Below are positions 33,203 through 51,564 of a stretch of 64,000 nucleotides of DNA, in pieces. Source of the stretch: Thermodesulfobacteriota bacterium (GTDB taxonomy: Bacteria; Desulfobacterota_D; UBA1144; Nemesobacterales; UBA2774). The stretch is from the NCBI GenBank assembly GCA_965223335.1, contig OZ244991.1, positions 256,001 to 320,000 on the forward strand, read 5' to 3'. The position numbers and the translations under genes were made by a program. Every line of letters starts with the position of its first letter. Position 1 is the stretch's first letter. Below the pieces are notes generated by a model that saw only the letters and a program-made list of their open reading frames with translations, ran no database searches and was not told where the DNA came from.

Positions 33203-33215
33203 ATCTTTACATACA

Positions 33216-34423: not shown

Positions 34424-34549
34424 TCCTAAACAATCACATGATTTCAACAACTTGCGAGTGTGATAAGGTTAAGGTAAAATCGTACTAATTAAAAGCTCCA
34501 ACCCAAAAAAGTCCCCGTAGCTCAGCAGGATAGAGCACAGGATTCCTAA
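34424..34549 (+). repeat. attR of island A (126-bp direct repeat)
   Basis: Identical to 23901-24026. Confidence 0.95.
34452..34480 (+). promoter_or_regulatory. sigma70-type promoter of tRNA-Arg
   Basis: TTGCGA-17 bp-TAAAAT, also present at 23929-23957. Confidence 0.65.
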
Positions 34550-34587
34550 TCCTGGGGTCAGAGGTTCGAATCCTCTCGGGGACGCCA
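34511..34587 (+). tRNA. tRNA-Arg(CCT)
   Basis: 77 nt; acceptor stem GTCCCCG/CGGGGAC, anticodon stem CAGGA/TCCTG with loop TTCCTAA, T-loop GGTTCGAATCC, encoded CCA. Confidence 0.97.
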
Positions 34588-34611: not shown

Positions 34612-35691
34612 TCATTGTCCCTTAATCATTTCAATGTCAGTGGATTTGTCAGTTAATGATTTGGAGTTGTACTGATCTAGATATTCAACTGCATCAAATA
34701 ATGAACTTTCCGGATGACTGTATCTCATAGTCATTTTTAAATCACTGTGTCCAAGAATCCTACTCACAGCTACAATAGATGCCCCAGCTTCAATCATTCT
34801 AGTGGCTGCAGTATGTCTTAAATCGTGGAACCTTAAACCTTCTATTCTTGCTTTTTGACATGCTCTCCCGAATGCTCCCTTGATTGAATCATGATATTTA
34901 TATGGCAATCCATTACAGGATAAGAACACATATTTACTCCCTCCACCTTTAAGCTTTTGCTCTAACAGGACTGATCTTAATCTTGAATTAATAGGTATCC
35001 GTCTTGTTTTCTTACTCTTCGTATTTGTTTGATCAATAGTAATGACATTGTTCTCAATGTCTATATTGGACCATTTCAAAGTGAGTATCTCTGATTTCCT
35101 CATCCCAGTTTGAAGTGCTGTTAGTAAAATGGGTTTTAAATATTGGTTAGAAGATAAAAGCAATCTAATTTCTTCATCAATTGAAAGAATTCTTTCTTTA
35201 ATATTATTCTCCTGTAACAAGCCTGATATGGTTACTGGATACTCACCGTAATACTTTTTCCACCTCTTAGCAAGATTGTAAATCTGTCTCAATGTAGATA
35301 GTTCACGGTTTACTGTTGCGGGTTTAACTTCTTTTAAGCGAAGTTCCTTAAAATCATCGATGTCCTTTGGTGTTATAGATGATAGTTTTCTTTCACCATA
35401 CATCTCTAATAACTTGTACATGCTATATCGATACCTATCCCATGATCTTCTCTGCAAAATATCTTTTACATATTTTATGTATTCATCACTAAAGTCCTTT
35501 AATTTGGGGATATTAGCTTCCAACATATCGTATTGGCCAAGTTTGACTCCACGTTCTTTGTCTAGGAGGATTGATCGGGCCATGGATTTAGTCATCATTC
35601 CCTTTTTACCTATCGATTCTCGGCGCATTTTGCCATTGATATTACGATACTCGATAACCCATGAATTACCCCTCAGGAACACACTACCCAT
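34612..35691 (-). CDS. Tyrosine recombinase/integrase of island B
   Basis: TGMRKSE, RFHDLRHTAAT, ILGH, TMRY. TGTCAGT direct repeats (34635, 34647) lie in its 3' end. Confidence 0.95.
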   Translation of the reverse strand: MGSVFLRGNSWVIEYRNINGKMRRESIGKKGMMTKSMARSILLDKERGVKLGQYDMLEANIPKLKDFSDEYIKYVKDILQRRSWDRYRYSMYKLLEMYGERKLSSITPKDIDDFKELRLKEVKPATVNRELSTLRQIYNLAKRWKKYYGEYPVTISGLLQENNIKERILSIDEEIRLLLSSNQYLKPILLTALQTGMRKSEILTLKWSNIDIENNVITIDQTNTKSKKTRRIPINSRLRSVLLEQKLKGGGSKYVFLSCNGLPYKYHDSIKGAFGRACQKARIEGLRFHDLRHTAATRMIEAGASIVAVSRILGHSDLKMTMRYSHPESSLFDAVEYLDQYNSKSLTDKSTDIEMIKGQ

Positions 35692-36628: not shown

Positions 36629-39600
36629 ATGAACTATCAAAATACTAGGTCAATAATCACACTACTGTGTCTATTTTTCATGGTAATGATGATACCCCGA
36701 TATGCGTTTGCAATTGGTGAGAACTACGATGAGTGGGGGTTTAAGAAGAACAAAACTTATATGCAGTTCTCTCCAGAGGAATATGTCAACCTGTTCTCGG
36801 GCAACTTAGTTTTAACACATACCGATGTTGTACTCCCAGGCAATGGCGGATTGGATCTAAAGATTCAAAGAACTTACAACAGCAAGATTTTCTCGGAATT
36901 GACTAACGTAGGTTTCACAATCTCCGGATCAGTATTTGGGAATTTGGGAGTAGGTTGGGAGATGCATTTCGGTCGCATCAACACATTAGGTTCAATTTTA
37001 CAAATCCAACATCCTATTTTAGTTGAGATGCCAGATGGATCCATTAAAACAGCCTTCACGAATGATCAGTCAAATATTAGTTCGAACATCGCCAGTAGTT
37101 ATGTAACAGAAGACTTCTGGTTCATTGATGGTTTCGATCACAACTCTGATCAGGTAATTGACGAGTATGTGATGAAATTGCCCGATGGCACAACATATAC
37201 ATTTGATCATAGAGTATCTAACTCACTAACATACAATAATTATTATGTGACATCCATTGATGATACAAATGGAAATACTATCACATTTGAATACTATGAC
37301 TGTTGTGGTTTTACAACAACTCCAGATACAGGAACCATAGGTTCATGTTCTCCCCATGGCCCAAATGATACTACATCCCGCCATCTTAAAAAAATTACGG
37401 ACAGTGTCGGTCGAGAAATACATTTCACGATGGATAATGCTACATGTCATGAAAATGCTATAAAGACTATTGATGTTTTTGGGGACATATATACCTACAA
37501 CTATTCTACAGTACTGGGTGTACCAGGAGGGGATAATCATGATGGCGGATCGGGGAAACTATTACTCGGAGTAGATCCCCCTGTCGGGCCGAGTTGGGAT
37601 TATGATTATTTAGCGCAACCACTTGACGGACATCCCGATGGCGAGTTAATCCAGATTACACATCCTTCGGGTGGTACCATAGACTATACATACGAAACAT
37701 TTGATCTAGAACTTTATGACCAATCAGGTAGTGGGAATACGGGTAATTTTAAATTCCGCGCTCTAACTTCACGTACAACATCTGGTCCTAATATAACAAA
37801 TCCAGGCACATGGACTTTTGATTACCATCCTACAGAAACCACCGATAAAACAACTGTTACTGATGCATGTGGGAACAAAGAGGTATACAACTTTTTCGGT
37901 CTTAGAACTGGTTCGTTTGGTGGTCTATGGAAAATCGGATTACTCGATTATAAACAAACGTTAGATGCTGCAGATAATCCAGTAGAGACAACCACTAATG
38001 TATGGAATTCTTATCAGATCTCGAATGAGGGGCAAGACAATATATCGTCGCCGTCTATAAACGGAACATATTTACCCCTACTTATTTCACAGGATATATC
38101 ACGGGATGGCAAAAATTATAGTACTACATTTACATATAATGAATTTTACGACTCCCCCACACAGATAATGGAAACAGGGGAGTTCACAAGAACTACTGAT
38201 ATTACATATTTTGAAAATTTAAGCTCAAACATTTTCGGCAAACCCGCCAGCACAACTGTTAATCAGAGTGGTGAATCGAAAGTAATAACCAACTCCTACG
38301 ACCCTGCAGGCAACCTAACGATGGAAAACCAATACGGTGTAATCACAGAGTATGGGTATTTCCCCGATGGCAATCTAAACTGGGAAAAGAACGCCAGGAA
38401 CTTCTATACCGTCTTTGATCTATATGATAATGGCCTTGCTACTGTCTTGAAATATGGCGCGACAGACAATGCAGGCGGATCAGCTATTTACACAGAAAAT
38501 AGGTCTATTAACTGGGAAGGAACTATAGCAAGCCATACAGATGGTAAAGGCAATACCACTTCATTCACATATGATGGGATCAATAGACTCACCCAAATTA
38601 CTCCACCACCAAGCGGCGAGGCTGTGACCGATATTGTATATGATGATACGAATGGACGATTTGATACTGTATCAAAAGGTAATTCGTCTCTACACACCAC
38701 GTATGATGGATTCGGCAGAAAAATAGGTACGCAAACTGCCGCGGGCGTACAAACGGAAATTCAATACGACGTATGCGGTAGAAAATCATACGAATCATTA
38801 CCCTACGATACCAACACACCAAACACCGGCAACAGCTACACATACGATGCACTCGACAGACTCAAGTCTATAACGCGACCCGATAGCACAGTTGTAAGCT
38901 ATACGTATTCAAGCGATGCTGACGGCAGCAAAATCACAGTCAACAACGAAAACAACCAAAACACGACTATGCATTATAAGGCATTCGGCGATCCGGATGA
39001 TAAGAGATTAGTTAAAGTCACAGATGCACTCACCAATGCTACAGGATACACATACGATCTATTAGGGAATATTGTGCAGGTAGGCTCACCTAATGGCACC
39101 TCACGGTCTTACTCGTACAATGATAAAAACTTCTTAGTGTCCGAGACTCATCCCGAGAGCGGAACAACTTCTTATTCACATGACGAGATTGGAAATGTGA
39201 CTTCAAAGATGAACGCGAAGTCAGAAACGACTAGCTACGCCTATGACCCTGTCAACAGACTTACCAACGTCAATAACCCGGGAGCTGAACCCGATGTTGA
39301 TTATGGATATGACTTTGCTAATAACAGAACATCGATGGTAGGGATACACCCCAACGTAGAACAGACTTATAACTACACGTATACATACGATGCCTCCAAT
39401 AGGCTTACGAACCAGGACGTTACCGTAGGCAGCGATGTCAGCTATAGCGTGGACTATGCATATGACGTTAAAAACAATGTTACAAGCATTATTTATCCAT
39501 CCGGTGAAACGGTCAATTACGACTATGACGCTCAAAATAGAATACTCAATATCTTAGATGGGACTAGTAACAACATATCTACCAATTTTAATTACATCGC

Positions 39601-42600
39601 ATCCGGTGCACCAACCCATTTCGAAAGTGTCTATGGTGTAGATTCAGACTTTACCTACGACACGAGACAGCGTCTTAAAACACTCCAGATCTCGAGAGTA
39701 TTCCCTTATCTCTTGATTATAAAAGAGGGTCTGGGTGACGGTACTGTTATCGGGACCGATAGTAGCTCAACTCAGGTTATCAATTGCGGTGATGTTTGTG
39801 CGATACAATCGCCGGCAGAAGGTGTTGAAATAACACTTACGCAAACTCCCGACACAGGCTCCAATTTTGTAGGATGGAGTGGGGATCCCGATTGTACTGA
39901 TGATATAGGTGATCCTATGATTACTATGCAGGGCACAAAAGTATGTATAGCTACATACGGAGATACCCCGGTACAAGTAGAACTCACAGTAACAAAAGAT
40001 GGGACAGGAACTGGTACGGTAACAAGTACTCCAGCTGGGATTGATTGCGGTGCTGACTGCTCAGAATTTTACAACGCAAATACAGAAGTCACATTATCCG
40101 CCAACCCTGCGGCAGGCGACGTATTCGCCGGCTGGAGTGGTGGAGCCGGTGACTGCGACGACGGTACAGTCACTATGGACGTTGCTAAAACATGTAACGC
40201 CACATTCAATACTGCTCCCCCGGGCGGTGGGCAATCCACACTTATGATAAATGCGAATGGCGGGGATGGTACTGGTACGGTCACCAGCAACCCTGCGGGC
40301 ATAGACTGTGGTGCGACATGTTCAAATGCATTCGATAACGGTACCGTAGTTGCGCTAATTGCCACCCCGGATACGGGGTCTTCGTTTATTGGCTGGACAG
40401 GGGATGCTGATTGTTCTGATGGACGAATAACTATTGATGCTAATAAATCTTGTACAGCCGAGTTTGATGACACAGCTCCTAATCAATACACATTAAATAT
40501 CGGTGTAACTGGAAGCGGGTCTATATCCAGCAGCCCAGCAGGTATTGATTGTGGTGCAGATTGCACTGAAAGCTTTGTAGAAAATACGGAAGTAGTGCTG
40601 TCTGCCGCTGCAGACACAGGATATACGTTTACAGGGTGGAGTGGTGACCCTGACTGTGCAGATGGTGTCGTATCTATGATTGCCGATAAAACGTGCGATG
40701 CCACATTTATAGCGTCTACGGGTATGACGTTCTCCTTAAGTGTGTTAATTGATCCTGCAGGCACAGGACTTGGTGATGTAGTAAGTAGCCCTGCAGGTAT
40801 AGACTGCGGTCCTAATTGTTCTGCGGATTTTGACGAGAATCAGAGTGTAATTCTAACACCTCTACCCAGTTTGGGTTCTACCTTCACTGGCTGGAGTGGT
40901 GACCCGGATTGTACTGACGACGGTGTAGGTGGTGTCGCTATTGTTAGCATGAATGCTGTTAAGAGCTGTACTGCTACATTCGATGTGTCTACTTTAGTTC
41001 AGCATCAGGTTTCTGTAACTAAAAGTGGTATGGGCTCAGGGTTAATTATCAGCAATCCATCCGGCATAGATTGCAGGGATGTTTGTGATGCTAACTTTGA
41101 TGAGAACTCCATTGTTACTCTAAGTGCTGTACCCGACCTCGGTTCCACATTTGTAGGATGGAGTGGTGATTGTGCCGGAACAGATGAAGATGTGTCGTTA
41201 ACCATATCTAATGCTGTAAATTGCAATGCGGATTTTGATGCTCTACCTATATATACATTCTCAATCGTAACATCCGGGACAGGTACGGGGACTGTAAAGT
41301 CAGAAAAACTTGGTATTGATTGCGGGACTGATTGCTCCGAGGATTACTATCAGGGCACTGAAGTCACGCTGATACCAACCCCTGATCCGGGCTCTATATT
41401 CATTGGTTGGAAGGGTGACAACGACTGCTTCGACGGGATTGTTACGATAACCAAACCAAATGCATGCGAAGCTATATTTGACTTGGTAGAAGTAGGTCAA
41501 TATGTGCTAACAATTAATAAGATCGGTGGTGGTGACGGAATAGTCACAAGTGACCCTGTAGGCTTAGAATGCGGGAACTATTGCCAGAAGAACTTTGATG
41601 AAAACACAGTAATTACTTTGACTGCAACTGCTGATGAATTATCAGAATTTGTTGAATGGGGTGCAGACTGCCCTGGTGGTGTAGTCACTCTCGATGCCGA
41701 TAAGACATGCGATGTCGGGTTTAAGGGAACAACATTTGCACAATTCCAAACCCTGGTACCATCAAATGTCCTGGATCAAACATTTGGAGCAGATATATCG
41801 ATAGATGGTGATACAGCAGTTATAGGAGCATTAGGTCATCCTTCTGGCGAAGTGATTGCGAAGGGTATAGCATTTGTTTTTGAGCGTGATAACAGTGGTA
41901 TTTGGAATGAAGTACAAATACTGGATCCTCGACTACCTGGAGAGGAATTATACTCTGGAGGTGGGTACAAGAGAGACTTTGGATCTAGCATATCACTTAG
42001 AGATGATGTTTTAGTTGTAGGATCACCGAGAGAATACAATGCAAGTACTAACTCAGATGGTGCAGCGTATATATACAGAAAAAACATGTTAGGTGTATGG
42101 GAACAAGCTCAGAAGTTAACCCCTACCGATGCTCTGGGTTTCGGCACTAAAGTACAAGTCCTTGGTGATAATATGGTGATTGGTTCATCTCGTGATGACG
42201 GGAGTAGAGGTGCTGTTTACGCATATAGGAAACAACCTTCTGGAACGTGGGTATTTTCTAAGAAACTATCACCTAGCGAGCTTGAACCCAACGAAGAATT
42301 TGGCAGTGATCTGGTTATGGATGGTGATTATCTCTTTGTTGCTAATCCAAACGATACGGGGTCCAACTATCAAGGTTCTGTTTATGTTTATAAATATGTT
42401 CCTGGGTTCGGTTGGGTTGAAAAGCAAGTACTGACATCTACTACTGAGAATGCACAAAACAGTTTTGGCACTTCTATTGAACTCAAAGACGATGTAGCAT
42501 ACATAGGCACTTACACAAACCAAAGTACAACATTTATGGATATTTACAGGCTCAATGGAGATAATGTTTGGACATATATAGAAAGGTATCCGATAGATGG

Positions 42601-45600
42601 TAATTATGTCTACACACCTGATTTTACAATTAGTGGTGATATTGCAGTATCAAATCGCGGGATTTTTGAATTTAATGTGTACAAGATATTACCGAATAAC
42701 GAGCTAAGACCAATCCAAGTAATTGATCCCCTTCCTAATATTGGTAAAACCCCCTTAGGTACAGATTTTCAAAACGATACATTGTTTGTTTCTTCTGATT
42801 ACATTGCCAATAGCGTATTGGTCTATACAATCACAGATTACCTTGCTCCTACGATTAACGTTGTAAGTATTGATCCTCCTCCAAACCAATACGGTGTTTT
42901 TGGCCCTGAAGATATAGCTGGCCATTCTAATATCACTGTTACATTTGAGTGTATCGATAACAGCGGTACTGGTATAGACACATGTACTAATACTCAAAGT
43001 GTGCCGACTTCTGATGGTGTACACCAGGTTGTGGGCACGGCTACTGACAATGATGGAAACACATCTATCACAGTATTAACTATAGTTGTCGATACACAAG
43101 AACCTATTATTGAATACCTCAATTCCGAGATTGATGACAGTACAAATCCACCTAGGATTGGTATAGATTCGGGCGATAATGACGATATATCTGGATCAAA
43201 TGATGATACCTGGAACATAGATGTAGATGGCAATCAATCCACTGGTAATTGTTCACGAGAACCATCAACTAACACTTCCCTATGCAATGGTCCACCAACT
43301 GACTATGGAATTGGTCAGGCTTTGAACCTAAACCTCCCCACTGTGGAAGAGCTGACACAGTTTAGAAACCTACACTCTACAATACAAAGGGTTGTGCGTA
43401 TTGAGGTCGAAGATTTTGCTGGCAATAGGGCGTCAAGAGAGTTCTTAGTAGACTTCCCAAACCCCGATGCTCCTAACCCGCAAACACTCACGGTTACAAC
43501 ATCAGGTAACGGCATCGTAACCAGCTTCCCCACAGGCATCGACTGCGGTGCGGACTGTACTGAGGACTATGGTGAAGGTACGGTAGTCACCCTCACAGCT
43601 ACGCCTGATCCAGGCTGGACGTTTACAGCTTGGAGCGGTGATGCCGACTGTACAGACGGCGAAGTCACCATGGATATGGCAAAGAGCTGTACAGCCACAT
43701 TTGATATGTCCAGTGGCACACAGCATACCCTCACAGTCACCAAATCCGGTACAGGGACGGGTACTATAACCAGCAGTCCTGCAGGTATAGACTGCGGCGC
43801 AGACTGTATAGAAGATTACGATGAGAATACCGTTGTAACCCTCACTCCTACTCCAGATGCTGGATCAACCTTCACAGGCTGGTCAGGCGATCCCGATTGT
43901 TCTGACGGTAGTGTAACTATGGACACTGCCAAGACCTGTACGGCTACCTTTGATCTTTCAACACCAACCCTACACACCTTAAATGTTACAAAGACAGGTA
44001 CGGGCACAGGAACCGTTACGAGTACCCCAACGGGTATAGACTGCGGTGCTGATTGTACCGAGGACTTTAATGAGGATACGTCTGTAACACTTATCCCGAC
44101 CCCCGACACAGGGTCCTCGTTTGTGGGTTGGACCGGTGATCCCGATTGCTCCGACGGTGTTGTTACCGTAGATGCTGCCAAGACGTGTACTGCTACCTTT
44201 GATACAGCAGCTACTCAACACACCTTAACCATAACTAAAGCAGGGGCTGGTACTGGCACAGTGATGAATGTAGGTGGCGGCATCAACTGCGGAACTACGT
44301 GTAATTTCAACTTCAATGATGGCACCTCTGTGATCCTCACCGCCACAGCAGACCCCGGATCTGCATTCGTTAGCTGGTCTGGAGACGCAGACTGTGATGA
44401 CGGTATTGTTAGCATGGACACAGCAAAGACATGCACAGCTACGTTTGAAGCCGAAGCGATTGTACCTATTTTACTAGAGGGATCACCAGGTACAGCTGGT
44501 TCAGTCAGTACGTTCGTAATCACCGGGGCTACGCCCAATAGTCAAATTGAGCTCAGGTATGGAACATCTCAAGGCTCTTCATCCGCAATGTGTACTTCAG
44601 GGTCTACGACTTATGACATCGCTGGGGCAAGCCTTATTGGTAACGCTGTTGCAGATTCATTCGGTAATGCTTCTATTGATGTATCTATCCCATCCAACTT
44701 TGTGGGTGTGTCCTTATTCATGCAAGCATTGGATAAGACCGCTTGTGCTACCACAAACCTCCTTACTCAGACATTTGATGTGCCAGGAGCAGTAGTTTAT
44801 CCCATATTGGTTTCCAAAGATGGCACAGGGGATGGGACTGTAACAACGGATCCCCAGGGTCTAAACTGCGGTGTACAATGTGCAGAGGTATATGCAGAGA
44901 ATGATTTGGTAACTCTGATAGCCACTCCTGCAAATGGGTCTGTATTCAGTGGATGGAGTGGAGCCGCAGACGACTGCTTTGACGGTATCGTTACAATGGA
45001 TATGGCCAAGAACTGTATTGCTACATTCGATATAGCAAGTAGCACACAGCATACCCTCACAGTATCTAAAGGCGGTACAGGGACGGGTACTGTAACCAGC
45101 AGCCCAGCAGGTATAAGCTGTGGCACTGATTGCACCGAGGATTACAATGAGAATACTGTCGTAACCCTGACACCTTCACCAGATTCAGGCTCGACATTTG
45201 TAGGCTGGACTGGAGATGCTGACTGTAGTGATGGCAATGTAACAATGAACGCTGCTAAGACCTGCACGGCTACGTTTGATACATCCACACCCAACCAACA
45301 CACACTCACAGTCTCTAAGGCCGGTACAGGTACGGGTACAGTCACAAGCAGCCCCACGGGTATAAGCTGCGGTGCGGACTGCACTGAGGATTACAACGAG
45401 AACACAGCTGTAACACTCACTCCTACACCAGACGCAGGATCAACCTTCACAGGCTGGTCAGGCGATGCAGACTGCTCTGACGGTAGTGTAACAATGGATG
45501 CGGCTAAAACTTGCACGGCTACGTTTGATACCTCATCATCCACCCAATACACACTCACAGTCTCTAAAGCCGGTACAGGTACGGGGACTGTAACCAGTAG

Positions 45601-48600
45601 TCCTGTAGGCATCGATTGTGGCGCTGACTGCACCGAGGATTATGACGAGAATACAGCCGTAACCCTCACTCCTACCCCAGATGCAGGATCAACCTTCACA
45701 GGTTGGAGCGGCGATCCAGACTGTAGTGACGGTAGTGTAACTATGGACGCTGCCAAGACTTGTACAGCTACATTCGATCCTTCAACACCGACCCTACACA
45801 CTTTAAATGTTACAAAGACCGGCACAGGGACAGGAACTGTTACGAGTACCCCAACAGGTATAGACTGCGGTGCTGACTGTACAGAGGACTTTAATGAGGG
45901 TACGTCTGTGACCCTTATCCCGACCCCCGACACCGGGTCCTCGTTTGTGGGTTGGACCGGGGATCCCGATTGTTCAGACGGTGTTGTTACCGTAGACGCT
46001 GCCAAGACGTGTACTGCCACCTTTGAGACAGCAGCTACTCAACACACCTTAACCATAACTAAAGCCGGGGCTGGTACTGGCACAGTAATGAATGTAGGCG
46101 GTGGCATCAACTGTGGAACTACGTGTAATTTCAACTTTAATGATGGCACCTCTGTGATCCTTACCGCCACAGCAGACCCCGGATCTGCATTCGTTAGCTG
46201 GTCCGGAGACACAGACTGTGATGACGGCATAGTTAGCATGGACACAGCCAAGACATGCACCGCCACGTTTGAAGCCGAAGCGATTGTACCTATTTTACTA
46301 GAGGGATCGCCAGGTACAGCTGGTTCAATCAGCACATTCGTTATCACCGGGGCTACGCCCAATAGTCAAATTGAGCTCAGATATGGATCAGCTCAAGGCT
46401 CCACATCCGCAACGTGTACTTCAGGATCTACCACTTATGACATCGCTGGGGCAAATATTATTGGTAACGGTGTAGCTGATTCATTCGGTAATACCTCTAT
46501 TCAGGTATCTATCCCATCCAGCTTTGTTGGTGTGTCCTTATTCATGCAAGCATTGGATAAGACCGCTTGTGCTACCACAAACTTACTTACTCAAACCTTT
46601 AGTGTGCCGGGAGGAGTAGTATACGACCTCTTGATCACAAAGGATGGCACGGGAGATGGGACCGTAACAACTGATCCCCAGGGTCTAAACTGCGGTGTAC
46701 AGTGTGCAGAGGTATATGCAGAGAACGATTTGGTAACACTGATAGCCACTCCTGCAAACGGATCTGTATTCAGTGGATGGAGTGGAGACCCCGATTGTAC
46801 AGATGGTCTCGTTACAGCGGACTCTATCAAAACATGTAATGCTACATTCGATATAGCTAGTAGCACACAGCACACCCTTACCGTTACGAAAGCCGGTACG
46901 GGTACGGGAACTGTAACCAGCAACCCAGCAGGCATAAGCTGTGGCGCAGACTGTACAGAGGACTACAATGAGAATACAGCTGTAACCCTTACACCTTCAC
47001 CAGATTCAGGCTCAACCTTCATAGGCTGGACTGGAGATGCTGACTGTAGTGATGGTAGTGTAACAATGAACGCTGCTAAAACTTGCACGGCTACTTTTGA
47101 TACCTCATCATCCACCCAATACACACTCACAGTCACTAAAGCTGGCACAGGGACGGGTACAGTCACAAGTAGTCCCTCAGGCATAAGCTGCGGTGGTGAC
47201 TGCACCGAAAATTATAATGAGAATACTGTAGTAACCCTAACACCTACTCCAAATGAAGGTTCAACCTTTATAGGCTGGAGTGGTGACCCGGACTGTAGTG
47301 ACGGCAGTGTAACAATGGACGCTGCCAAGACCTGTACGGCTACTTTTGATACTTCCTCTTCCACACAGCATACCCTTACTGTATCTAAAGCCGGCACAGG
47401 GACTGGAACAGTCACAAGCAGCCCTGCTGGCATCAGCTGTGGCGCAGACTGTACAGAGAATTACAACGAGAATACGGTTGTAACCCTGACACCTTCATCT
47501 AATGCTGGCTCTACCTTCACAGGTTGGAGTGGGGATCCGGACTGTAGTGACGGTAGTGTGACTATGGATGCGGCTAAAACTTGCACGGCTACTTTTGATC
47601 AATCCACCGCACAACAGTATCTACTAACTATCAATAGAACTGGTCTAGGTATTGGTATGGTTACAAGTAATCCACCAGGCATCAACTGCGGTAATGATTG
47701 TATTGAATTTTACGACGAGAACACCCAGGTTGTAATAACTGCAACTCCGTTTAGTGGCTCCTCGTTTACGGGATGGAGTGGTGATGCAGATTGTTCGGAT
47801 GGTGTAGTAACAATGAGCAGTGCAAGAACATGTACTGCTGTCTTTGCATCTGGTGGGGGTACACAGCAATATACCCTATCGGTTACCAAATCCGGTACAG
47901 GGACGGGTACCGTAACCAGTAATCCTGCAGGCATAAACTGTGGAAGTGATTGCAGTGAGAATTATACCGACGGTACATCGGTAACACTCACCGCAACGGC
48001 TGACACTGGATCCACCTTCACAGGTTGGAGTGGCGATACCGATTGTAGCGATGGGGTCGTCACGGTGAATTCGGCTAAGACGTGCACAGCTACATTTGAT
48101 AGCGGTGGCGGGTCTCAATTCACAATGCAACCTTTGACTCCTGGAACAGCTAACGCAAACAATACCATTACTGTCACAGGTGCTACACCCAACGGTCAAG
48201 TCAACTTCCGTTATGGTTTTTCACCTGGAACTACATCTGTCAGTTGTACAAATGGCACGGTCAATGTAGGTATAGCAAATGCTACTCACCTAACAACTGT
48301 ATCAGCAGATTCTTCTGGTACAGCTTCTGTAACTGTATTCATCAGCACCCAATTCATCGGTCTCACACTATACTTGCAAGCAGTGGATTTATCGACATGT
48401 ACTATAACCAATCTACTTGCTCATCCTTTCACCTCCTCATCCAAGCTATATGAATTCGATATATTGGATATGAAGTCCGCCTATGCTGCCAATCTCAATT
48501 CCGACAGTTGCTCGGATGTGGGTGGGGTTAGTGGTTGTATGAATCTAAGTGTGGAGGGCATAGATGAAAGAACCCACACAATCAACAATACAGATAATTC

Positions 48601-50293
48601 ACGCTTATACCCATATATCATCAATAAGCCTCTGGGAGGTGACAAAGTGAAAACCAATACAAACATTGCCTCGGAAGGCAGATTGAAAACACAAACAAAC
48701 GAGTCACAAAACACTTCATGGTTGCACAGGACCAAATCCAAACTAAGTCCGCTCATGAAATCGATGCGGCTTATGCTGCTGTCTCTCGTGTTCGGAGCCA
48801 ATGCATATGCGCAAGGCACCCCTGTGCCCTTTATAGACCTCGAGTATAACTACGACGGTGTAGGGAATGTAACGGGTATCACCGACCACATTGATAACAA
48901 CAATAGTTGCACGATGGGATACGACCCACTCAACCGATTGACCTCAGCCGTGGGGCCATGGGGGGCTGGTGGATTCACATACGACTCTATTGGCAACAGA
49001 ACAAGTAAGAGTTTTGACGGTAATAGCACCAATTACTCATATGACAGCGCTACTAACCGACTACTTTCAGGTCATGGCTACGATGCAAATGGCAACATAA
49101 CCAGCGGAGGACCGTTCAACTATACCTATGACTCCTATAACAGGGTTAAATCTGCAACGAATATGGCAGATGATATTACCTATCTTTATGATGGTGATGG
49201 TAGGAGGATTAGCCAGACTGTAAATGGCGAGACCACGATCTTTGCTTACGGTGCAGATTCCAATGTTCTCACCGAGTTGAAACTCGATCCAACTGATTCA
49301 ATGTGGAAGCCCTCAAAGGACTATATCTATGCAGGCCGGCTAAACATTGCCGTTGTGGAGTTCGATACTGGCGGTACCTCAACCGGCAAGAAGTTTTACC
49401 ATGCGGACCACCTGGGATCGGCTATTGCACTCACTGACAATGTGACCACAGTAGTATGGGACAGGACCTACTTCCCATACGGCGGCAGATTTGCCGGAGA
49501 ACTTAGCGGACCGGTTCAAAACACACACCAATACACAGGCAAAGAATTTGATGAGGATTTTACCCAGCTGGCCTACTACGGAGCTAGGTACTACAACCCC
49601 AGTATTGGGCGCTTTATGAGTGTGGATCCTGCGGGGATAGACATCACCAATCCCCAGTCCTGGAACCGCTACGCCTACGTCCAAAACAACCCATTCTCTT
49701 ACGTAGACCCGGATGGGGAAATTTTAGAAACTGCTTGGGATGTATTTAATATTAGTCTGGGTGTTATCTCATTCAAGCAAAGTGTATCTAAGGGCAATTA
49801 TTTTGATGCTTTACTAGATGCGGGTGGAATCGCTATTGATTCTGCAGCGGCTGTAATTCCTGTAATCCCTGGTGGTGTCGGGACAATCATTAAGGCTAGT
49901 CGAGCAGGTAAAGTTGCTGCGCAATTGGCAAAAAATGCCAATAGAGTGAACAAAGTAATAAAAAATATCCCTAATAATGGTATATTAGATCCAAAGACTA
50001 TAAGGTTTACTCAAGATAGTGCAAAGCGATACTTTAAAGATGGTAGATCAGTGGAAAAACTGATAAACGATTTGAAATTGGGCAAAGTTACTGCAGCCGA
50101 TGTTCCACCAATTAAAATATTTCAAAGTGATGGATTGACATTTTCTCTAGACAATCGTCGTCTTCATGCATTTCAAGAAGCAGGTGTTCCAATTAGAGTC
50201 GTTGCCGCAACTGCTGAAGAAATTGCTAAAGCTATAAGAGACAGTAAATTTTCAACTATAAATGAAGGTGTATCTATTATAATAAGAAAATAA
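36629..50293 (+). CDS. Giant Rhs/YD-repeat polymorphic toxin with inserted InlB-B-like repeats, FG-GAP-like propeller and C-terminal ParB-like toxin domain
   Basis: Signal peptide; VNLFSGNL...RTYNS N-terminal domain; YD repeats; 24 G.xCG.xC/F.GWSG repeats; Rhs core YTGKEFD...YGARYY...NPFSYVDPDG; C-terminal IRFTQDS...SLDNRRL. Confidence 0.92.
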   Translation: MNYQNTRSIITLLCLFFMVMMIPRYAFAIGENYDEWGFKKNKTYMQFSPEEYVNLFSGNLVLTHTDVVLPGNGGLDLKIQRTYNSKIFSELTNVGFTISGSVFGNLGVGWEMHFGRINTLGSILQIQHPILVEMPDGSIKTAFTNDQSNISSNIASSYVTEDFWFIDGFDHNSDQVIDEYVMKLPDGTTYTFDHRVSNSLTYNNYYVTSIDDTNGNTITFEYYDCCGFTTTPDTGTIGSCSPHGPNDTTSRHLKKITDSVGREIHFTMDNATCHENAIKTIDVFGDIYTYNYSTVLGVPGGDNHDGGSGKLLLGVDPPVGPSWDYDYLAQPLDGHPDGELIQITHPSGGTIDYTYETFDLELYDQSGSGNTGNFKFRALTSRTTSGPNITNPGTWTFDYHPTETTDKTTVTDACGNKEVYNFFGLRTGSFGGLWKIGLLDYKQTLDAADNPVETTTNVWNSYQISNEGQDNISSPSINGTYLPLLISQDISRDGKNYSTTFTYNEFYDSPTQIMETGEFTRTTDITYFENLSSNIFGKPASTTVNQSGESKVITNSYDPAGNLTMENQYGVITEYGYFPDGNLNWEKNARNFYTVFDLYDNGLATVLKYGATDNAGGSAIYTENRSINWEGTIASHTDGKGNTTSFTYDGINRLTQITPPPSGEAVTDIVYDDTNGRFDTVSKGNSSLHTTYDGFGRKIGTQTAAGVQTEIQYDVCGRKSYESLPYDTNTPNTGNSYTYDALDRLKSITRPDSTVVSYTYSSDADGSKITVNNENNQNTTMHYKAFGDPDDKRLVKVTDALTNATGYTYDLLGNIVQVGSPNGTSRSYSYNDKNFLVSETHPESGTTSYSHDEIGNVTSKMNAKSETTSYAYDPVNRLTNVNNPGAEPDVDYGYDFANNRTSMVGIHPNVEQTYNYTYTYDASNRLTNQDVTVGSDVSYSVDYAYDVKNNVTSIIYPSGETVNYDYDAQNRILNILDGTSNNISTNFNYIASGAPTHFESVYGVDSDFTYDTRQRLKTLQISRVFPYLLIIKEGLGDGTVIGTDSSSTQVINCGDVCAIQSPAEGVEITLTQTPDTGSNFVGWSGDPDCTDDIGDPMITMQGTKVCIATYGDTPVQVELTVTKDGTGTGTVTSTPAGIDCGADCSEFYNANTEVTLSANPAAGDVFAGWSGGAGDCDDGTVTMDVAKTCNATFNTAPPGGGQSTLMINANGGDGTGTVTSNPAGIDCGATCSNAFDNGTVVALIATPDTGSSFIGWTGDADCSDGRITIDANKSCTAEFDDTAPNQYTLNIGVTGSGSISSSPAGIDCGADCTESFVENTEVVLSAAADTGYTFTGWSGDPDCADGVVSMIADKTCDATFIASTGMTFSLSVLIDPAGTGLGDVVSSPAGIDCGPNCSADFDENQSVILTPLPSLGSTFTGWSGDPDCTDDGVGGVAIVSMNAVKSCTATFDVSTLVQHQVSVTKSGMGSGLIISNPSGIDCRDVCDANFDENSIVTLSAVPDLGSTFVGWSGDCAGTDEDVSLTISNAVNCNADFDALPIYTFSIVTSGTGTGTVKSEKLGIDCGTDCSEDYYQGTEVTLIPTPDPGSIFIGWKGDNDCFDGIVTITKPNACEAIFDLVEVGQYVLTINKIGGGDGIVTSDPVGLECGNYCQKNFDENTVITLTATADELSEFVEWGADCPGGVVTLDADKTCDVGFKGTTFAQFQTLVPSNVLDQTFGADISIDGDTAVIGALGHPSGEVIAKGIAFVFERDNSGIWNEVQILDPRLPGEELYSGGGYKRDFGSSISLRDDVLVVGSPREYNASTNSDGAAYIYRKNMLGVWEQAQKLTPTDALGFGTKVQVLGDNMVIGSSRDDGSRGAVYAYRKQPSGTWVFSKKLSPSELEPNEEFGSDLVMDGDYLFVANPNDTGSNYQGSVYVYKYVPGFGWVEKQVLTSTTENAQNSFGTSIELKDDVAYIGTYTNQSTTFMDIYRLNGDNVWTYIERYPIDGNYVYTPDFTISGDIAVSNRGIFEFNVYKILPNNELRPIQVIDPLPNIGKTPLGTDFQNDTLFVSSDYIANSVLVYTITDYLAPTINVVSIDPPPNQYGVFGPEDIAGHSNITVTFECIDNSGTGIDTCTNTQSVPTSDGVHQVVGTATDNDGNTSITVLTIVVDTQEPIIEYLNSEIDDSTNPPRIGIDSGDNDDISGSNDDTWNIDVDGNQSTGNCSREPSTNTSLCNGPPTDYGIGQALNLNLPTVEELTQFRNLHSTIQRVVRIEVEDFAGNRASREFLVDFPNPDAPNPQTLTVTTSGNGIVTSFPTGIDCGADCTEDYGEGTVVTLTATPDPGWTFTAWSGDADCTDGEVTMDMAKSCTATFDMSSGTQHTLTVTKSGTGTGTITSSPAGIDCGADCIEDYDENTVVTLTPTPDAGSTFTGWSGDPDCSDGSVTMDTAKTCTATFDLSTPTLHTLNVTKTGTGTGTVTSTPTGIDCGADCTEDFNEDTSVTLIPTPDTGSSFVGWTGDPDCSDGVVTVDAAKTCTATFDTAATQHTLTITKAGAGTGTVMNVGGGINCGTTCNFNFNDGTSVILTATADPGSAFVSWSGDADCDDGIVSMDTAKTCTATFEAEAIVPILLEGSPGTAGSVSTFVITGATPNSQIELRYGTSQGSSSAMCTSGSTTYDIAGASLIGNAVADSFGNASIDVSIPSNFVGVSLFMQALDKTACATTNLLTQTFDVPGAVVYPILVSKDGTGDGTVTTDPQGLNCGVQCAEVYAENDLVTLIATPANGSVFSGWSGAADDCFDGIVTMDMAKNCIATFDIASSTQHTLTVSKGGTGTGTVTSSPAGISCGTDCTEDYNENTVVTLTPSPDSGSTFVGWTGDADCSDGNVTMNAAKTCTATFDTSTPNQHTLTVSKAGTGTGTVTSSPTGISCGADCTEDYNENTAVTLTPTPDAGSTFTGWSGDADCSDGSVTMDAAKTCTATFDTSSSTQYTLTVSKAGTGTGTVTSSPVGIDCGADCTEDYDENTAVTLTPTPDAGSTFTGWSGDPDCSDGSVTMDAAKTCTATFDPSTPTLHTLNVTKTGTGTGTVTSTPTGIDCGADCTEDFNEGTSVTLIPTPDTGSSFVGWTGDPDCSDGVVTVDAAKTCTATFETAATQHTLTITKAGAGTGTVMNVGGGINCGTTCNFNFNDGTSVILTATADPGSAFVSWSGDTDCDDGIVSMDTAKTCTATFEAEAIVPILLEGSPGTAGSISTFVITGATPNSQIELRYGSAQGSTSATCTSGSTTYDIAGANIIGNGVADSFGNTSIQVSIPSSFVGVSLFMQALDKTACATTNLLTQTFSVPGGVVYDLLITKDGTGDGTVTTDPQGLNCGVQCAEVYAENDLVTLIATPANGSVFSGWSGDPDCTDGLVTADSIKTCNATFDIASSTQHTLTVTKAGTGTGTVTSNPAGISCGADCTEDYNENTAVTLTPSPDSGSTFIGWTGDADCSDGSVTMNAAKTCTATFDTSSSTQYTLTVTKAGTGTGTVTSSPSGISCGGDCTENYNENTVVTLTPTPNEGSTFIGWSGDPDCSDGSVTMDAAKTCTATFDTSSSTQHTLTVSKAGTGTGTVTSSPAGISCGADCTENYNENTVVTLTPSSNAGSTFTGWSGDPDCSDGSVTMDAAKTCTATFDQSTAQQYLLTINRTGLGIGMVTSNPPGINCGNDCIEFYDENTQVVITATPFSGSSFTGWSGDADCSDGVVTMSSARTCTAVFASGGGTQQYTLSVTKSGTGTGTVTSNPAGINCGSDCSENYTDGTSVTLTATADTGSTFTGWSGDTDCSDGVVTVNSAKTCTATFDSGGGSQFTMQPLTPGTANANNTITVTGATPNGQVNFRYGFSPGTTSVSCTNGTVNVGIANATHLTTVSADSSGTASVTVFISTQFIGLTLYLQAVDLSTCTITNLLAHPFTSSSKLYEFDILDMKSAYAANLNSDSCSDVGGVSGCMNLSVEGIDERTHTINNTDNSRLYPYIINKPLGGDKVKTNTNIASEGRLKTQTNESQNTSWLHRTKSKLSPLMKSMRLMLLSLVFGANAYAQGTPVPFIDLEYNYDGVGNVTGITDHIDNNNSCTMGYDPLNRLTSAVGPWGAGGFTYDSIGNRTSKSFDGNSTNYSYDSATNRLLSGHGYDANGNITSGGPFNYTYDSYNRVKSATNMADDITYLYDGDGRRISQTVNGETTIFAYGADSNVLTELKLDPTDSMWKPSKDYIYAGRLNIAVVEFDTGGTSTGKKFYHADHLGSAIALTDNVTTVVWDRTYFPYGGRFAGELSGPVQNTHQYTGKEFDEDFTQLAYYGARYYNPSIGRFMSVDPAGIDITNPQSWNRYAYVQNNPFSYVDPDGEILETAWDVFNISLGVISFKQSVSKGNYFDALLDAGGIAIDSAAAVIPVIPGGVGTIIKASRAGKVAAQLAKNANRVNKVIKNIPNNGILDPKTIRFTQDSAKRYFKDGRSVEKLINDLKLGKVTAADVPPIKIFQSDGLTFSLDNRRLHAFQEAGVPIRVVAATAEEIAKAIRDSKFSTINEGVSIIIRK
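43720..47120 (+). repeat. Intragenic ~1.8-kb-period duplication plus ~249-bp tandem units in the Rhs gene
   Basis: For example 43961 and 45785 begin near-identical blocks (offset 1824 bp). Units of ~83 aa recur throughout. Confidence 0.85.
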
Positions 50294-50306
50294 GAGGAGA
50301 AGAGCC

Positions 50307-50570
50307 ATGAATCCATTCAAACTTCATGACCAGTTAGACAAAATAACAACGAGACATGAACTAGCTGAATTCATACTGAGCTTAAGAGAAGATCTAATCA
50401 ACAACCCTTCAGAATGGGAAAATCCTAATTTAGAAAGATTTTTAGAATCAATGTCAGGATGGATTGTAGATATGCATGGATATTTTCAAAATATAGGCGA
50501 ACCATTTCCAGAAGAACTAACATGGGAGCTTTTTGGTAGAATACTCTTAGCTGCTCGGAGTTATGAATGA
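50307..50570 (+). CDS. Putative cognate immunity protein (DUF7660-like)
   Basis: 87 aa directly after the toxin with an AGGAG RBS; WENPNLERFLESM..W...TWELFGRILLAARSYE pattern seen in small genes following polymorphic toxins. Confidence 0.75.
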   Translation: MNPFKLHDQLDKITTRHELAEFILSLREDLINNPSEWENPNLERFLESMSGWIVDMHGYFQNIGEPFPEELTWELFGRILLAARSYE

Positions 50571-50799: not shown

Positions 50800-51381
50800 A
50801 TGGCCTCAGGAGAAACAAAAGGAATTAGGACCAATACAAAGAGTTTGATAACATTGAGCCGAACAATTTCCCACGCTCTGCGTCATGAACCTTGGGTATA
50901 TGAACTTGAGTTGGACGAAGAGGGCTGGACAGATGCACAGATTCTATTGAATACCCTACAGGCAATGCGCCCTGAATGGAAAGATATAAATGTTGATGAT
51001 CTGATCACTCTGAACAATAGTGCAGGCAAAAAACGTTTTGAGATAGACAAAGGTAGAATTCGCGCTTTATATGGCCACTCTTTACCGGGCAAGATGCTTA
51101 AAACACCTTCTGAACCACCTGAATATTTATATCACGGCACCAATCCAGCAATTATACCAAAAATAAAAGAAAATGGTTTACAACCAATGAATAGACAATA
51201 TGTTCATCTTTCGACAGATAAGAAAACTGCAATTGAAGTAGGTAAAAGAAAGGCTAATAATCCTATACTAATAACAATCTCATCTTCTAAAGCACATAGA
51301 GAAGGCATTATCTTCTATATTGGGAATGATAAAGTATGGCTAGCAGATCAAATCCCACCAAAATATTTATCCTATGAATAG
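50800..51381 (+). CDS. kptA: RNA 2'-phosphotransferase (Tpt1/KptA)
   Basis: LSRTISHALRH.P, KKRFE, RIRALYGHS, LYHGT, GLQPMNRQYVHLS, KVWLAD.IP. Confidence 0.95.
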   Translation: MASGETKGIRTNTKSLITLSRTISHALRHEPWVYELELDEEGWTDAQILLNTLQAMRPEWKDINVDDLITLNNSAGKKRFEIDKGRIRALYGHSLPGKMLKTPSEPPEYLYHGTNPAIIPKIKENGLQPMNRQYVHLSTDKKTAIEVGKRKANNPILITISSSKAHREGIIFYIGNDKVWLADQIPPKYLSYE

Positions 51382-51502: not shown

Positions 51503-51539
51503 ATCCTAGGGTCAGAGGTTCGAATCCTCTCGGGGACGC
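51503..51539 (+). repeat. attR of island B: 3' fragment of tRNA-Arg
   Basis: ATCCTAGGGTCAGAGGTTCGAATCCTCTCGGGGACGC versus tRNA 34549-34585, one mismatch. Confidence 0.93.
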
Positions 51540-51564
51540 GAATTAATCATTCCAGAATAGTATT

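Follow-up and report, generated by a model that had tools for sequence, protein, structure and literature searches.

An Rhs toxin gene with a long stalk between two parts of its shell may be the fused form of a two-part, Sec-exported cage

In the usual view, an Rhs cage forms around its toxin while still in the cytoplasm, from a single chain or, in the Tc toxins, from two chains that fold together, and the Rhs polypeptide is cleaved after a DPxG motif. WapA combines a signal peptide, a YD shell, and a polymorphic tip. In TcB-TcC, two polypeptides make up the Rhs/YD cocoon; the core aspartyl protease and an exchangeable toxin tip belong to the second, and fusions of TcB with TcC exist, natural or engineered. 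Tc subunits are synthesized in the cytoplasm and released by lysis or by a T10SS (accessible text of PMC10847048). The recently described bacterial teneurin-like proteins (TLPs), some of them from Thermodesulfobacteriota, are YD-shell toxins that depend on Sec and are probably displayed at the surface; they combine adhesion domains with polymorphic C-terminal tips and immunity genes, lack a dedicated injection machine, and leave open how they are delivered (accessible text of PMC13018210). In mosquito SGS1 (PDB 8fjp), a propeller and Ig-like sandwiches arise from segments inserted into the Rhs/YD sequence (accessible text of PMC9935623), and a publication of 2012 already mentions domains 'embedded among the RHS repeats' (accessible text of PMC3482391); domain insertion into an Rhs shell as such is therefore not new.

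The locus studied here lies in a 64,000-nucleotide stretch of Thermodesulfobacteriota DNA (the window), where a single uninterrupted reading frame at 36629..50293 (+) encodes a protein of 4554 aa. The original prediction saw in it an Rhs toxin whose YD shell is split in a single loop by an inserted adhesin stalk. YD repeats indeed end at aa 1023 with FTYDTRQRLKTLQISR (aa 1008-1023, nt 39650-39697) and restart at aa 4069 with IDLEYNYDGVGNV (aa 4069-4081, nt 48833), in agreement with the predicted limits of ~39700 and ~48830; only six 'YD' dipeptides fall between the two. Across the whole protein, Pfam reports only Flg_new_2, Flg_new, RHS_repeat, FG-GAP_2, DUF6531, and RHS. Mapping these domains, a step suggested with the prediction, places RHS_repeat on both sides (seven stretches in aa 1-1030, E 3.9e-36; three in aa 4039-4554, E 1.2e-12) with Flg_new_2 and FG-GAP_2 in between.

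It is highly improbable that this frame is an assembly artefact in which repeats led to the misjoining of two or three genes. We compared it with contigs made by another assembler from four runs (two samples of one study, probably the source sample). These contigs cover 36000-44233 and 47105-51000 with 0 differences in the four runs, which backs the two shell/stalk junctions as well as the open linker. The region at 44.2-47.1 kb is covered by pieces of 208-525 nt only, which speaks for the artefact; the contiguity that the prediction wanted confirmed thus stands at the junctions and the linker, and the repeat number in this region lacks independent confirmation. The DNA repeats of the stalk are only 60-85% identical to one another, not near-identical, and at least eight other records have the same architecture, both of which argue against misjoining.

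The first 28 residues (36629..36712, +) are laid out as MNYQNTR, a hydrophobic core, and AFA|IG, and hold the most hydrophobic 13-mer of the whole protein. Signal-peptide calls in this work rest on reading the translation (here by eye), on the hydrophobicity ranking, and on alignment; read in this way, the start is signal-peptide-like, in keeping with the predicted Sec-type N-terminus. Behind it, the N part (aa 29-1023, 36713..39697, +) comprises a plug region (SpvB-N-like, with DUF6531 at aa 52-112 by Pfam) and most of the YD shell. AlphaFold2 confidently models the N part by itself as most of an Rhs shell (48-sequence alignment; pLDDT 87.7, pTM 0.85); an earlier model from eight sequences had a pLDDT of 53.7, and its Foldseek matches were all Rhs, teneurin, or Tc shells, at TM ~0.23. 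The best matches of the newer model are T6SS-type Rhs shells (7q97, 8h8a, 7pq5, and 8cp6; Z 19.6-22.9, rmsd ~3 A), with RhsA 7q97_A at Z 22.9 and rmsd 3.2 A over 778 aligned residues. In contrast to T6SS effectors, the protein has a signal-peptide-like N-terminus and, by Pfam, no PAAR- or VgrG-linked one. Model residues 31-292 match the SpvB N-domain 6p0x_A (Z 11.1, rmsd 3.9 A, 216 residues), suggesting, by structural resemblance only, an SpvB-type domain in the N-terminal ~290 aa.

The stalk, on the + strand throughout, opens with InlB-B-type four-Cys repeats 1-8 (aa 1024-1702, 39698..41734), identified by Flg_new_2 and their Cys pattern. An FG-GAP-type beta-propeller region follows (aa 1703-2073, 41735..42847; five FG-GAP_2 stretches, E 4.6e-30), as predicted, and then a region with four Cys (aa 2074-2281, 42848..43471) that has a sub-threshold Big_13 match (E 0.052) and no NCBIfam match. 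Three more InlB-B blocks, marked by Flg_new_2, Cys pattern, and DNA repeats, are each followed by a copy of a two-Cys module: repeats 9-12 (aa 2282-2606, 43472..44446) by copy 1 (aa 2607-2740, 44447..44848), repeats 13-18 (aa 2741-3214, 44849..46270) by copy 2 (aa 3215-3348, 46271..46672), and repeats 19-24 (aa 3349-3829, 46673..48115) by copy 3 (aa 3830-3938, 48116..48442). Pfam finds 22 stretches of Flg_new_2 (E 6.4e-164); the C-x3-C...C-x12-C pattern counts 24 repeats (8+4+6+6), the predicted number. The module, of ~110-134 aa, is likewise present in the three copies foreseen: in a self-comparison, copies 1 and 2 share 87% identity with one another and 34% with copy 3. For the Ig-like fold ascribed to it, copy 1 matches no Pfam family and copy 3 has sub-threshold matches only. 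On a larger scale, aa 2607-3214 and aa 3215-3829 form a super-repeat of 78% identity. The stalk is followed by a low-complexity linker, read from the translation (aa 3939-4042, 48443..48754), and all fused relatives have a linker of 80-120 aa at the same place.

Directly before the C part lies MKSMRLMLLSLVFGANAYA (aa 4043-4061, 48755..48811, +), a segment that ends in AYA|Q and looks like a Sec signal peptide. In an alignment with 26 stand-alone relatives it falls on their N-terminal signal peptides, the Q at +1 is invariant in fused and stand-alone forms alike, and the region holds the third most hydrophobic 13-mer of the protein. We also considered an internal translation start for the C part and rejected it: the ATGs at 48755 and 48764 have no Shine-Dalgarno-like motif upstream, and in the relative G042 the codon at the equivalent position is GTC. 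The C part itself (aa 4062-4364, 48812..49720, +) contains the last YD hairpins (RHS_repeat) and an Rhs-associated core (TIGR03696 at aa 4281-4363, 73.9 bits against a cut-off of 32.5), and ends at DPDG|E (DPDGE, aa 4360-4364). By sequence, it aligns with the final 240-330 residues of Rhs and TcC shells of known structure (8h8a 884-1151, 7pq5 1108-1342, 8cp6 877-1120); on these three it begins about where the superposition of the N-part model stops (8h8a 149-923, 7pq5 272-1111, 8cp6 48-944) and runs to the shell end, a complementarity that is approximate because the structural and sequence mappings overlap by 3-157 residues. A sequence/profile mapping of the N part onto the solved shells was dropped, since the repeats slip and make its register uninformative.

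Past the core, the toxin region (aa 4365-4554 plus stop, 49721..50293, +) consists of a hydrophobic pre-toxin module of ~75 aa and a tip of ~115 aa. Against Ntox10, the module scores 31.1 bits (cut-off 26.8) over the first half of the profile (positions 2-92 of 193). P0130 and P0141 have it too, with different tips; indeed, tips past DPDG vary among 27 aligned relatives. The tip has no PDB match at E <= 0.1 and no NCBIfam match. Atlas leads for it were MafB-type (0.93) and ParB_N (0.87), and a ParB/Srx-like identity was set aside, being without Pfam support at E <= 1. Downstream, 50307..50570 (+) encodes an 87-aa DUF7660 protein (Pfam E 7.4e-27) that, judging by its position, may be the immunity protein.

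The gene is the chief cargo of a 17-kb island at a tRNA-Arg, which it mainly fills. Both ends of the island are defined, in line with the mobile-element location of the original prediction: the 3' end of tRNA-Arg(CCT) (34511..34587, +; ARAGORN, repeat search, and alignment) forms the left attachment repeat, and a copy of it at 51517..51541 (+) forms the right one, with 24 of 25 bases matching (0 expected by chance; the aligned repeat reaches ~41 nt, 39 of them identical). The island also carries a tyrosine integrase (34612..35691, -; Phage_integrase, E 4.1e-35) and a KptA/Tpt1 RNA 2'-phosphotransferase (50800..51381, +; PTS_2-RNA, E 5.3e-36). An orphan Rhs core fragment is found at 51564-51728. 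Consistent with the predicted absence of a T6SS partner, VipB/TssC (sheath) and Phage_GPD/VgrG (spike) profiles gave 0 matches in the 95.26%-complete genome, with positive controls detected. The genome encodes two secretins; the TpsB (ShlB) profile PF03865 gave 0 matches in it and likewise 0 in control genomes.

A search for homologues with and without the insert found both kinds, and those without a stalk locate the break. Among 73 relatives with a strong N-part match reaching the N-part end, all 12 with a complete C part directly behind it join the two with a gap of -10 to +23 residues between N-part end and C-part start (11 junctions by alignment listing, P0271 by eye). The break therefore lies at a single turn of the shell, as the single-loop claim had it, and sequence comparison shows the two YD blocks to be complementary parts on the two sides of one turn of an ordinary Rhs shell. 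The contiguous homologues P0271, P0274, and P0293 are proteins of ~1,400 aa with a signal peptide and an uninterrupted shell; that these homologues are only 31-36% identical to the N part, over 95-99% of its length, counts against the one-shell conclusion. With them and with Sec-dependent Rhs/WapA toxins, our protein shares the signal peptide, DUF6531-type plug, YD shell, core, and tip; it differs from both in that their shell is uninterrupted.

In other relatives the C part is a protein of its own. The 26 stand-alone relatives, of ~500 aa, begin with M, a hydrophobic core, and AxA|Q, and continue with an invariant PFIDLEYxYD; many stand-alone clusters stem from contigs of 2-7 kb. In three genomes (G036, G046, and G049), C part and toxin form a separate gene with its own signal peptide, unlinked to the N-part/stalk gene. 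The G046 C-part gene has an in-frame TAA and an AAGGA motif upstream of its ATG, and its locus is syntenic with that of G036. Fused forms occur again in P0006-P0009, G042, L041, L042, and L044; all retain the linker and the hydrophobic AxA|Q, with no start codon or Shine-Dalgarno-like motif there. In a tree of 48 C parts the fused label requires at least five changes, fused and separate forms interleave, and the C parts of P0009 (fused) and P0144 (stand-alone) are identical. A profile search of 1.84 billion representatives returned 370,175 at E <= 0.001, mostly general Rhs, among which only five stand-alone and two fused ones match from the signal-peptide region on. At the level of sequence, these comparisons show that the lineage occurs in three states, as a contiguous protein, as a fusion that includes a stalk, and as two proteins that are exported separately.

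Because a signal-peptide-like segment sits at the boundary of stalk and C part, because the C part is encoded in relatives by an exported gene of its own, and because fused and separate forms interconvert, we prefer the fusion of a two-gene, two-signal-peptide system to the insertion of a stalk: the gene probably encodes, in fused form, an Rhs cage of two parts that is exported by Sec and is analogous to TcB/TcC. The idea that the stalk was inserted into a once-continuous cage fits the boundary segment and the split relatives less well. As a plain insertion, a contiguous Sec-exported Rhs toxin, of the kind that the ~1,400-aa homologues with signal peptides represent, would have gained a stalk in one loop; the cage would fold in cis and show the stalk from its wall, the AYA|Q segment would be structural or incidental, and stand-alone C parts would be secondary break-offs. 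The solved SGS1, with four domains inserted into its shell sequence (accessible text of PMC9935623), sets a precedent; P0138 and P0139 resemble internal-deletion derivatives of a fused gene (first 13 aa of the big protein joined to the linker), and the big gene of G049 is a fused form interrupted by an IS element. We nevertheless consider this course of events unlikely. All three regions of a Sec signal peptide are present in the boundary segment, along with its invariant Q; stand-alone genes have their own ribosome-binding site and kept synteny in two species; and stand-alone forms are the earliest branches of the signal-peptide-bearing clade, by midpoint rooting only. Judging from the domain counts, an insert of ~2,900 aa and ~30 domains would moreover have to exit and re-enter at the same turn, a distance that the ~100-aa linker bridges only if the stalk folds back on itself.

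The two YD blocks may also not make one cage at all. The N part and stalk would then be a surface adhesin whose YD sheet stays open, and the C part would be either a small toxin secreted on its own or a cassette kept silent for recombination; the reading frame would be a recombination product that strings the two together. Consistent with this, 47 of the 73 relatives of the N part have adhesin-type domains at their end and no core, so that a shell-like protein without a toxin is evidently viable alone, and seven more stop after N part and stalk; the C-part genes of the three split genomes are unlinked, and there is the orphan core fragment at 51564-51728. Rhs loci classically retain orphan tips. 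Several findings nonetheless make this reading rather improbable. Solved shells have about 960-1,080 modelled residues, far more than the 303 aa of the C part, which is thus unlikely to cage the 190-aa toxin alone; the last N-part strand and the first C-part strand are among the most conserved stretches of their alignments; and fusion recurs at least five times, at the same boundary each time. Among 120 genomes of the class (a phylum-level search comprised the same 120 and added nothing), the N part occurs in eight. A close C part (E <= 1e-111) is found in five of these eight, fused in two and on other contigs in three, against 0 of the 112 others. G044 and G045 have an N part, with no C part found in assemblies of ~200 contigs that are 89-95% complete. 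Pairwise identities of N and C parts in the five genomes correlate at r = 0.98 (10 non-independent pairs); both this correlation and the co-occurrence are confounded by kinship, all cases outside G000 belonging to one family.

Adjacent gene pairs of the same design at a second break point also argue for one cage. We inspected 27 of 74 loci, those with a match starting at query residue <= 20, and in six of them a small gene for signal peptide, core, and toxin lies 1-29 nt behind a large ORF. Four of the large ORFs contain RHS_repeat, followed in two of these by PKD domains; the remaining two are cut by the locus start, with Ig-type domains visible. In these shell-stalk/core-toxin pairs, from other phyla, the break falls just before the Rhs core. 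It is a tentative extension, and somewhat doubtful as yet, that such genes represent a widespread undescribed class in which subunits are exported separately or, where fused, the small part is excised by signal peptidase at an internal AxA|Q, with assembly outside the cytoplasm, toxin tips that serve as interchangeable loads of a surface-displayed launcher, and two break points across phyla.

If the gene is the fused form of a two-part cage, its chain would run from the signal peptide through the plug and most of the shell to a disulfide-rich stalk of ~2,900 aa and a flexible linker of ~100 aa, and then through the AYA|Q segment to the last hairpins, the autoproteolytic core, and the ~190-aa toxin. 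The system would have two components, a large shell-and-stalk subunit and a small exchangeable one with shell end, core, and toxin, both leaving the cytoplasm via Sec. After export, the C part may complete the open shell by strand pairing and enclose the toxin, while the stalk would bind the target surface. More speculatively, signal peptidase might cut the fused form at AYA|Q and free the C part for docking. We infer this docking of the halves, the AYA|Q processing, and the delivery. It counts against two components that the genes are unlinked in three split genomes, which is unusual for obligate partners, and against cleavage that the translocating AYA|Q segment would meet the membrane in the opposite orientation to an N-terminal signal peptide. 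In the accessible text of the literature searched, no bacterial case of an internal signal peptide being cleaved came up; subscription journals aside, neither a Sec-exported Rhs cage in split or fused form nor an Rhs cage with an internal signal peptide turned up there.

The resemblance to TcB-TcC extends to structure, in that the N part aligns along TcdB2-TccC3 (4o9x; Z 15.1, 890 residues). In contrast, TcB proper (6l7i_F, 4igl_C, 5kis_A, 9c4k_P) covers only model residues 20-750, whereas the break here falls after residue 995; both parts here have predicted Sec-type signal peptides, in contrast to the cytoplasmic synthesis of Tc subunits; and the appended part is a ~2,900-aa stalk with FG-GAP in its middle rather than a single propeller docking to TcA. 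TLPs are alike in being Sec-type YD-shell toxins with adhesin-like domains and a variable tip, and 9ifo_A matches the N-part model over the shell only (Z 19.2). According to the accessible text on TLPs, their adhesion domains are N-terminal to a continuous TTR/FN-plug/NHL/YD superfold; here, Pfam reports no TTR, FN-plug, or NHL, the adhesin-like part interrupts the shell sequence, and a second signal-peptide-like element comes before the last portion of the shell. SGS1, a weaker match to the N-part model (Z 10.8), also has receptor-type inserts that decorate the shell; as far as its accessible description goes, it is one eukaryotic protein in which several loops each hold a single inserted domain, with no ~30-domain stalk, internal signal peptide, or split forms. 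What looks new here is the AYA|Q signal-peptide-like segment before the C part, together with what look like separate exported C-part genes in three related genomes.

A cage-closing toxin piece with its own export signal suggests that an Rhs cage can be completed after export. If true, this would be a different assembly route and would allow easy swapping of toxins on a fixed adhesin scaffold. Short signal-peptide-bearing 'RHS repeat-associated core' entries, usually taken for orphan fragments, would then be reinterpreted, as would coreless 'YD repeat' protein entries. With the fused form, the notion of an internal signal peptide can be put to the test in a bacterium, and delivery in a diderm without a T6SS is a question that it has in common with the bacterial teneurin-like toxins.

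The giant ORF (36629-50293, + strand) translates without interruption into 4554 aa. A signal-peptide-like start (aa 1-28) precedes the N part (aa 29-1023), which comprises DUF6531 and seven RHS_repeat stretches and whose last residues are FTYDTRQRLKTLQISR. The adhesin-like stalk follows: eight four-Cys InlB-B (Flg_new_2) repeats (aa 1024-1702), an FG-GAP_2 propeller region (aa 1703-2073), a four-Cys stretch without family assignment (aa 2074-2281), and further InlB-B repeats in blocks of four, six, and six, each followed by a two-Cys module of ~110-134 aa (aa 2282-3938). Behind the stalk lies a low-complexity linker (aa 3939-4042). After the boundary segment MKSMRLMLLSLVFGANAYA (aa 4043-4061), the C part (aa 4062-4364) opens with QGTPVPFIDLEYNYDG and holds more YD repeats, the Rhs-associated core (aa 4281-4363, TIGR03696), and the DPDGE motif (aa 4360-4364); a 190-aa tail (aa 4365-4554) ends the protein. 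ORF translation, domain searches, and the Cys pattern bear out the coordinates, the 24 InlB-B repeats, and the domain list of the original prediction, except that 'Ig-like' is only a putative label for the three two-Cys modules. Among these modules, copies 1 and 2 share 87% identity and copy 3 shares 34% with either of them; aa 2607-3214 and aa 3215-3829 of the stalk form a super-repeat at 78% identity. Within the tail, the first half scores 31.1 bits against Ntox10 (cut-off 26.8), and a DUF7660 gene of 87 aa, the candidate immunity gene, lies directly after the ORF.

An N-part search limited to proteins 551-1754 aa long yielded 488 matches at E <= 1e-20, of which the best 120 were taken; 360 collected proteins were classified using phmmer for the N part and an HMM for the C part. 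A strong N-part match reaches the N-part end in 73 of the 360. In 5 of these 73 (the window's protein and P0006-P0009) the C part comes after an insert of 1,108-3,031 aa, and in 12 a complete C part lies directly behind the N part, at an offset of -10 to +23 residues; 47 run on into the first ~180 C-part positions and then into other domains, without the core, seven end after the N part and stalk, and two end at the junction. The contiguous homologue P0271 reads TYNSRNLTTTITAG up to the junction and NAFNYGYSYDSRGNTT after it; by eye, the window's counterparts are TYDTRQRLKTLQISR and FIDLEYNYDGVGNVT. Because contiguous homologues join the N and C parts at a matching point, the break lies at a single turn between two hairpins, just as had been inferred from the sequence of the ORF.

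Modeled alone from a 48-sequence alignment, the N part gives a confident structure (pLDDT 87.7, pTM 0.85) that superposes on solved T6SS Rhs shells (Z 19.6-22.9, ~3 A rmsd). The superposition breaks off partway along each chain, and roughly there the sequence alignment of the C part takes over and runs to the chain end. The N part covers 149-923 of 8h8a, 272-1111 of 7pq5, and 48-944 of 8cp6 by structure, and the C part covers 884-1151, 1108-1342, and 877-1120, respectively, by sequence; this coverage is approximate, with overlaps of 3-157 residues. These results show that the two YD blocks are parts of one shell type.

The boundary segment (aa 4043-4061) has a basic stretch, a hydrophobic core, and AYA followed by Gln (AYA-Q). 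A C-part search among proteins of 179-571 aa returned 397 matches, including 31 clusters with an identity of 49% or more across 94% or more of the query. When 26 of these clusters, stand-alone relatives with the C part and toxin as their own gene, were aligned with the window's protein, each had a Met start and a signal peptide of this type; all share Gln at +1 and PFIDLEYxYD without variation, and the tips after DPDG are diverse. At the level of sequence, this alignment shows the boundary segment to be homologous to functional-looking signal peptides and the predicted toxin tips to be polymorphic.

In the related genome G036, a biotin synthase gene comes after the N-part/stalk gene of 2,664 aa, and the C part is encoded on a different contig; the arrangement in G046 is the same and syntenic, and its C-part gene has an in-frame TAA and an AAGGA motif just upstream of the ATG. 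G049 has a separate C-part gene as well, and its big gene is a fused form cut by an IS110-like transposase gene directly after FGQTVPPTTFIDL. The interruption (L038, G049:C50, 9234-10098) falls right after the signal-peptide-like segment and FIDL. These genome searches show that stand-alone C parts are real separate genes. Downstream of the stand-alone C part, G036 and G046 have a small gene in common (MRKEYDFSKSVKNPYTKKLKKQ; L012 46-553 and L035 4895-5107), which in G036 is overlapped by a second small gene, as in a toxin-antitoxin pair; these small genes may be BrnT/BrnA-like.

The N part occurs in 8 of 120 genomes of the class: the window's own genome (G000) and 7 of 15 in one other family, with none in the 32 other genomes of G000's family. 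A close C part is present in five of the eight N-part genomes versus 0 of the 112 without an N part. G047 has a partial C-part copy at a contig end, and no close C part was found in the fragmented assemblies of G044 and G045. Across five genomes, N-part and C-part identities correlate (r = 0.98, from 10 non-independent pairs, a value that kinship alone could give).

Fused forms, with the N part, stalk, and C part in one gene, are not rare. P0006, P0007, P0008, P0009, the gene in G042, and metagenome loci L041, L042, and L044 all have a stalk, a linker of 80-120 aa, a hydrophobic stretch with AxA-Q, and PFIDLEY. The six close metagenome loci comprise four fused ones (L049, the fourth, shares its linker with P0009), a stand-alone one, and one whose type is undecidable. 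Such genes might produce a separate C part by internal initiation; they have no start codon or Shine-Dalgarno-like motif where stand-alone genes begin, so this is unlikely.

Maximum-likelihood analysis of 48 C parts groups every form that bears the signal peptide, whether fused or stand-alone, in one clade (100/99), with 11 contiguous forms outside it, and the fused label changes at least 5 times on this tree. Over the C part, fused P0009 does not differ from stand-alone P0144; stand-alone P0142 opens with the linker of its fused relative P0009, and stand-alone P0138 joins the big protein's first 13 residues to the linker (relative: G042). Judging from these changes and sequences, the locus type has repeatedly undergone fusion, splitting, and deletion. 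These data show that contiguous, fused, and split states all exist.

Independent contigs from four runs and another assembler span 36000-44233 and 47105-51000 with 0 differences, supporting both shell/stalk junctions and the open linker; the runs cover two samples from a single study, which probably also yielded the window's genome. Only short pieces cover the 44.2-47.1 kb repeat block, so copy number there rests on the genome assembly. At the DNA level, the stalk repeats are 60-85% identical.

A second break point appears in relatives of ~300 aa whose match is confined to the last third of the C part and in which a signal peptide leads directly into FYHxDHLGS (core), DPDG, and the tip. Scanning species-representative genomes with an alignment of these relatives gave 74 loci, of which we inspected the 27 with a match starting at query residue <= 20. 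Six of them (L118, L120, L121, L135, L150, L174) have the small gene 1-29 nt downstream of a large ORF on the same strand. RHS_repeat is present in four of the large ORFs, followed in two by PKD domains; in the remaining two, which the locus start truncates, the domains seen are Ig, He_PIG, and propeller types. On the Gammaproteobacteria contigs L118, L135, L150, and L174, a signal-peptide-core-toxin gene sits 2-29 nt behind a large RHS-repeat gene; the design matches that of the window's ORF, but with the split directly ahead of the core. In L143 and L180, both long ORFs, a signal-peptide-like stretch immediately precedes the core, and five of the 27 loci are ordinary contiguous Rhs. Thus, the predicted succession of shell, adhesin-like stalk, signal peptide, shell end or core, and toxin recurs in other phyla, as one gene or two adjacent genes.

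Together, the giant gene and the genes for DUF7660 and KptA/Tpt1 form an integrative island of ~17 kb, which fits the absence of the giant gene from the rest of G000's family. The 3' end of tRNA-Arg(CCT) (34511-34587) is repeated at 51517-51541 (24 of 25 bases, none expected by chance; aligned repeat ~41 nt), and an integrase lies at 34612-35691. The KptA/Tpt1 RNA 2'-phosphotransferase gene (50800-51381) is located between the candidate immunity gene and the right repeat. Just outside that repeat, an orphan Rhs core fragment (51564-51728) that shares 87-89% identity with aa 4294-4348 and lacks both ends looks like a remnant of an Rhs element that previously occupied this tRNA site; a truncated amine-oxidase ORF (51731-52285) follows. 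At 52854-56028 lie three tandem, partly overlapping ORFs of 347-387 aa, each closing with the IPTL-CTERM sorting motif (Pfam E 2.3e-5 to 2.7e-4). Left of the tRNA, a low-GC stretch (24000-34300, 0.33-0.41) may be another mobile element; it carries a second tyrosine integrase (33216-34277), a SocA/Panacea antitoxin-like gene (31788-32501), an Lcl C-terminal-domain protein (30426-31199), plus several ORFs that have no Pfam family. The 95%-complete genome G000 has two secretins and no match to TssC or VgrG; a ShlB search (PF03865) matched nothing in it, nor in the control genomes. Its second Rhs gene, outside the window (G000:C1:2141765-2146403), is a 1,799-aa open frame adjoined by a 424-aa frame that matches the C part at 36-39% identity; this locus is a classical main gene plus orphan arrangement.

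In the literature searched, we found no description of a Sec-exported split Rhs cage, of a fused cage form with an internal signal peptide, or of core-less shells partnered by small signal-peptide-core-toxin proteins. For SGS1, the insertion of domains into a YD shell is documented (PMC9935623), and such insertion was noted in 2012 at the architecture level (PMC3482391). Bacterial teneurin-like proteins are closest in lifestyle, being Sec-exported and probably surface-displayed, with an unknown delivery route (PMC13018210); they carry adhesion domains at the N-terminal side of an uninterrupted shell, unlike the window's ORF. The closest analogue in logic is TcB/TcC, which breaks elsewhere, TcB aligning to N-part model residues 20-750 only; Tc subunits are not Sec substrates, whereas both parts here have signal-peptide-like starts.

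Internal signal peptide cleavage has viral and eukaryotic precedents; among the papers listed by a literature search, there was no bacterial one. Gln at +1 after signal peptidase sites is the Bacteroidetes 'Q-rule' (PMC5837995), which may bear on AYA-Q and is only a lead. By a geometric argument rather than a computation, a stalk of ~30 domains has to exit the shell and come back into it at a single turn, which would be easy if the chain is cut at AYA-Q and hard otherwise. We propose a two-part cage, in which a large subunit would provide the scaffold and adhesin, a small subunit would provide the plug and cartridge, and the two would meet after Sec export.
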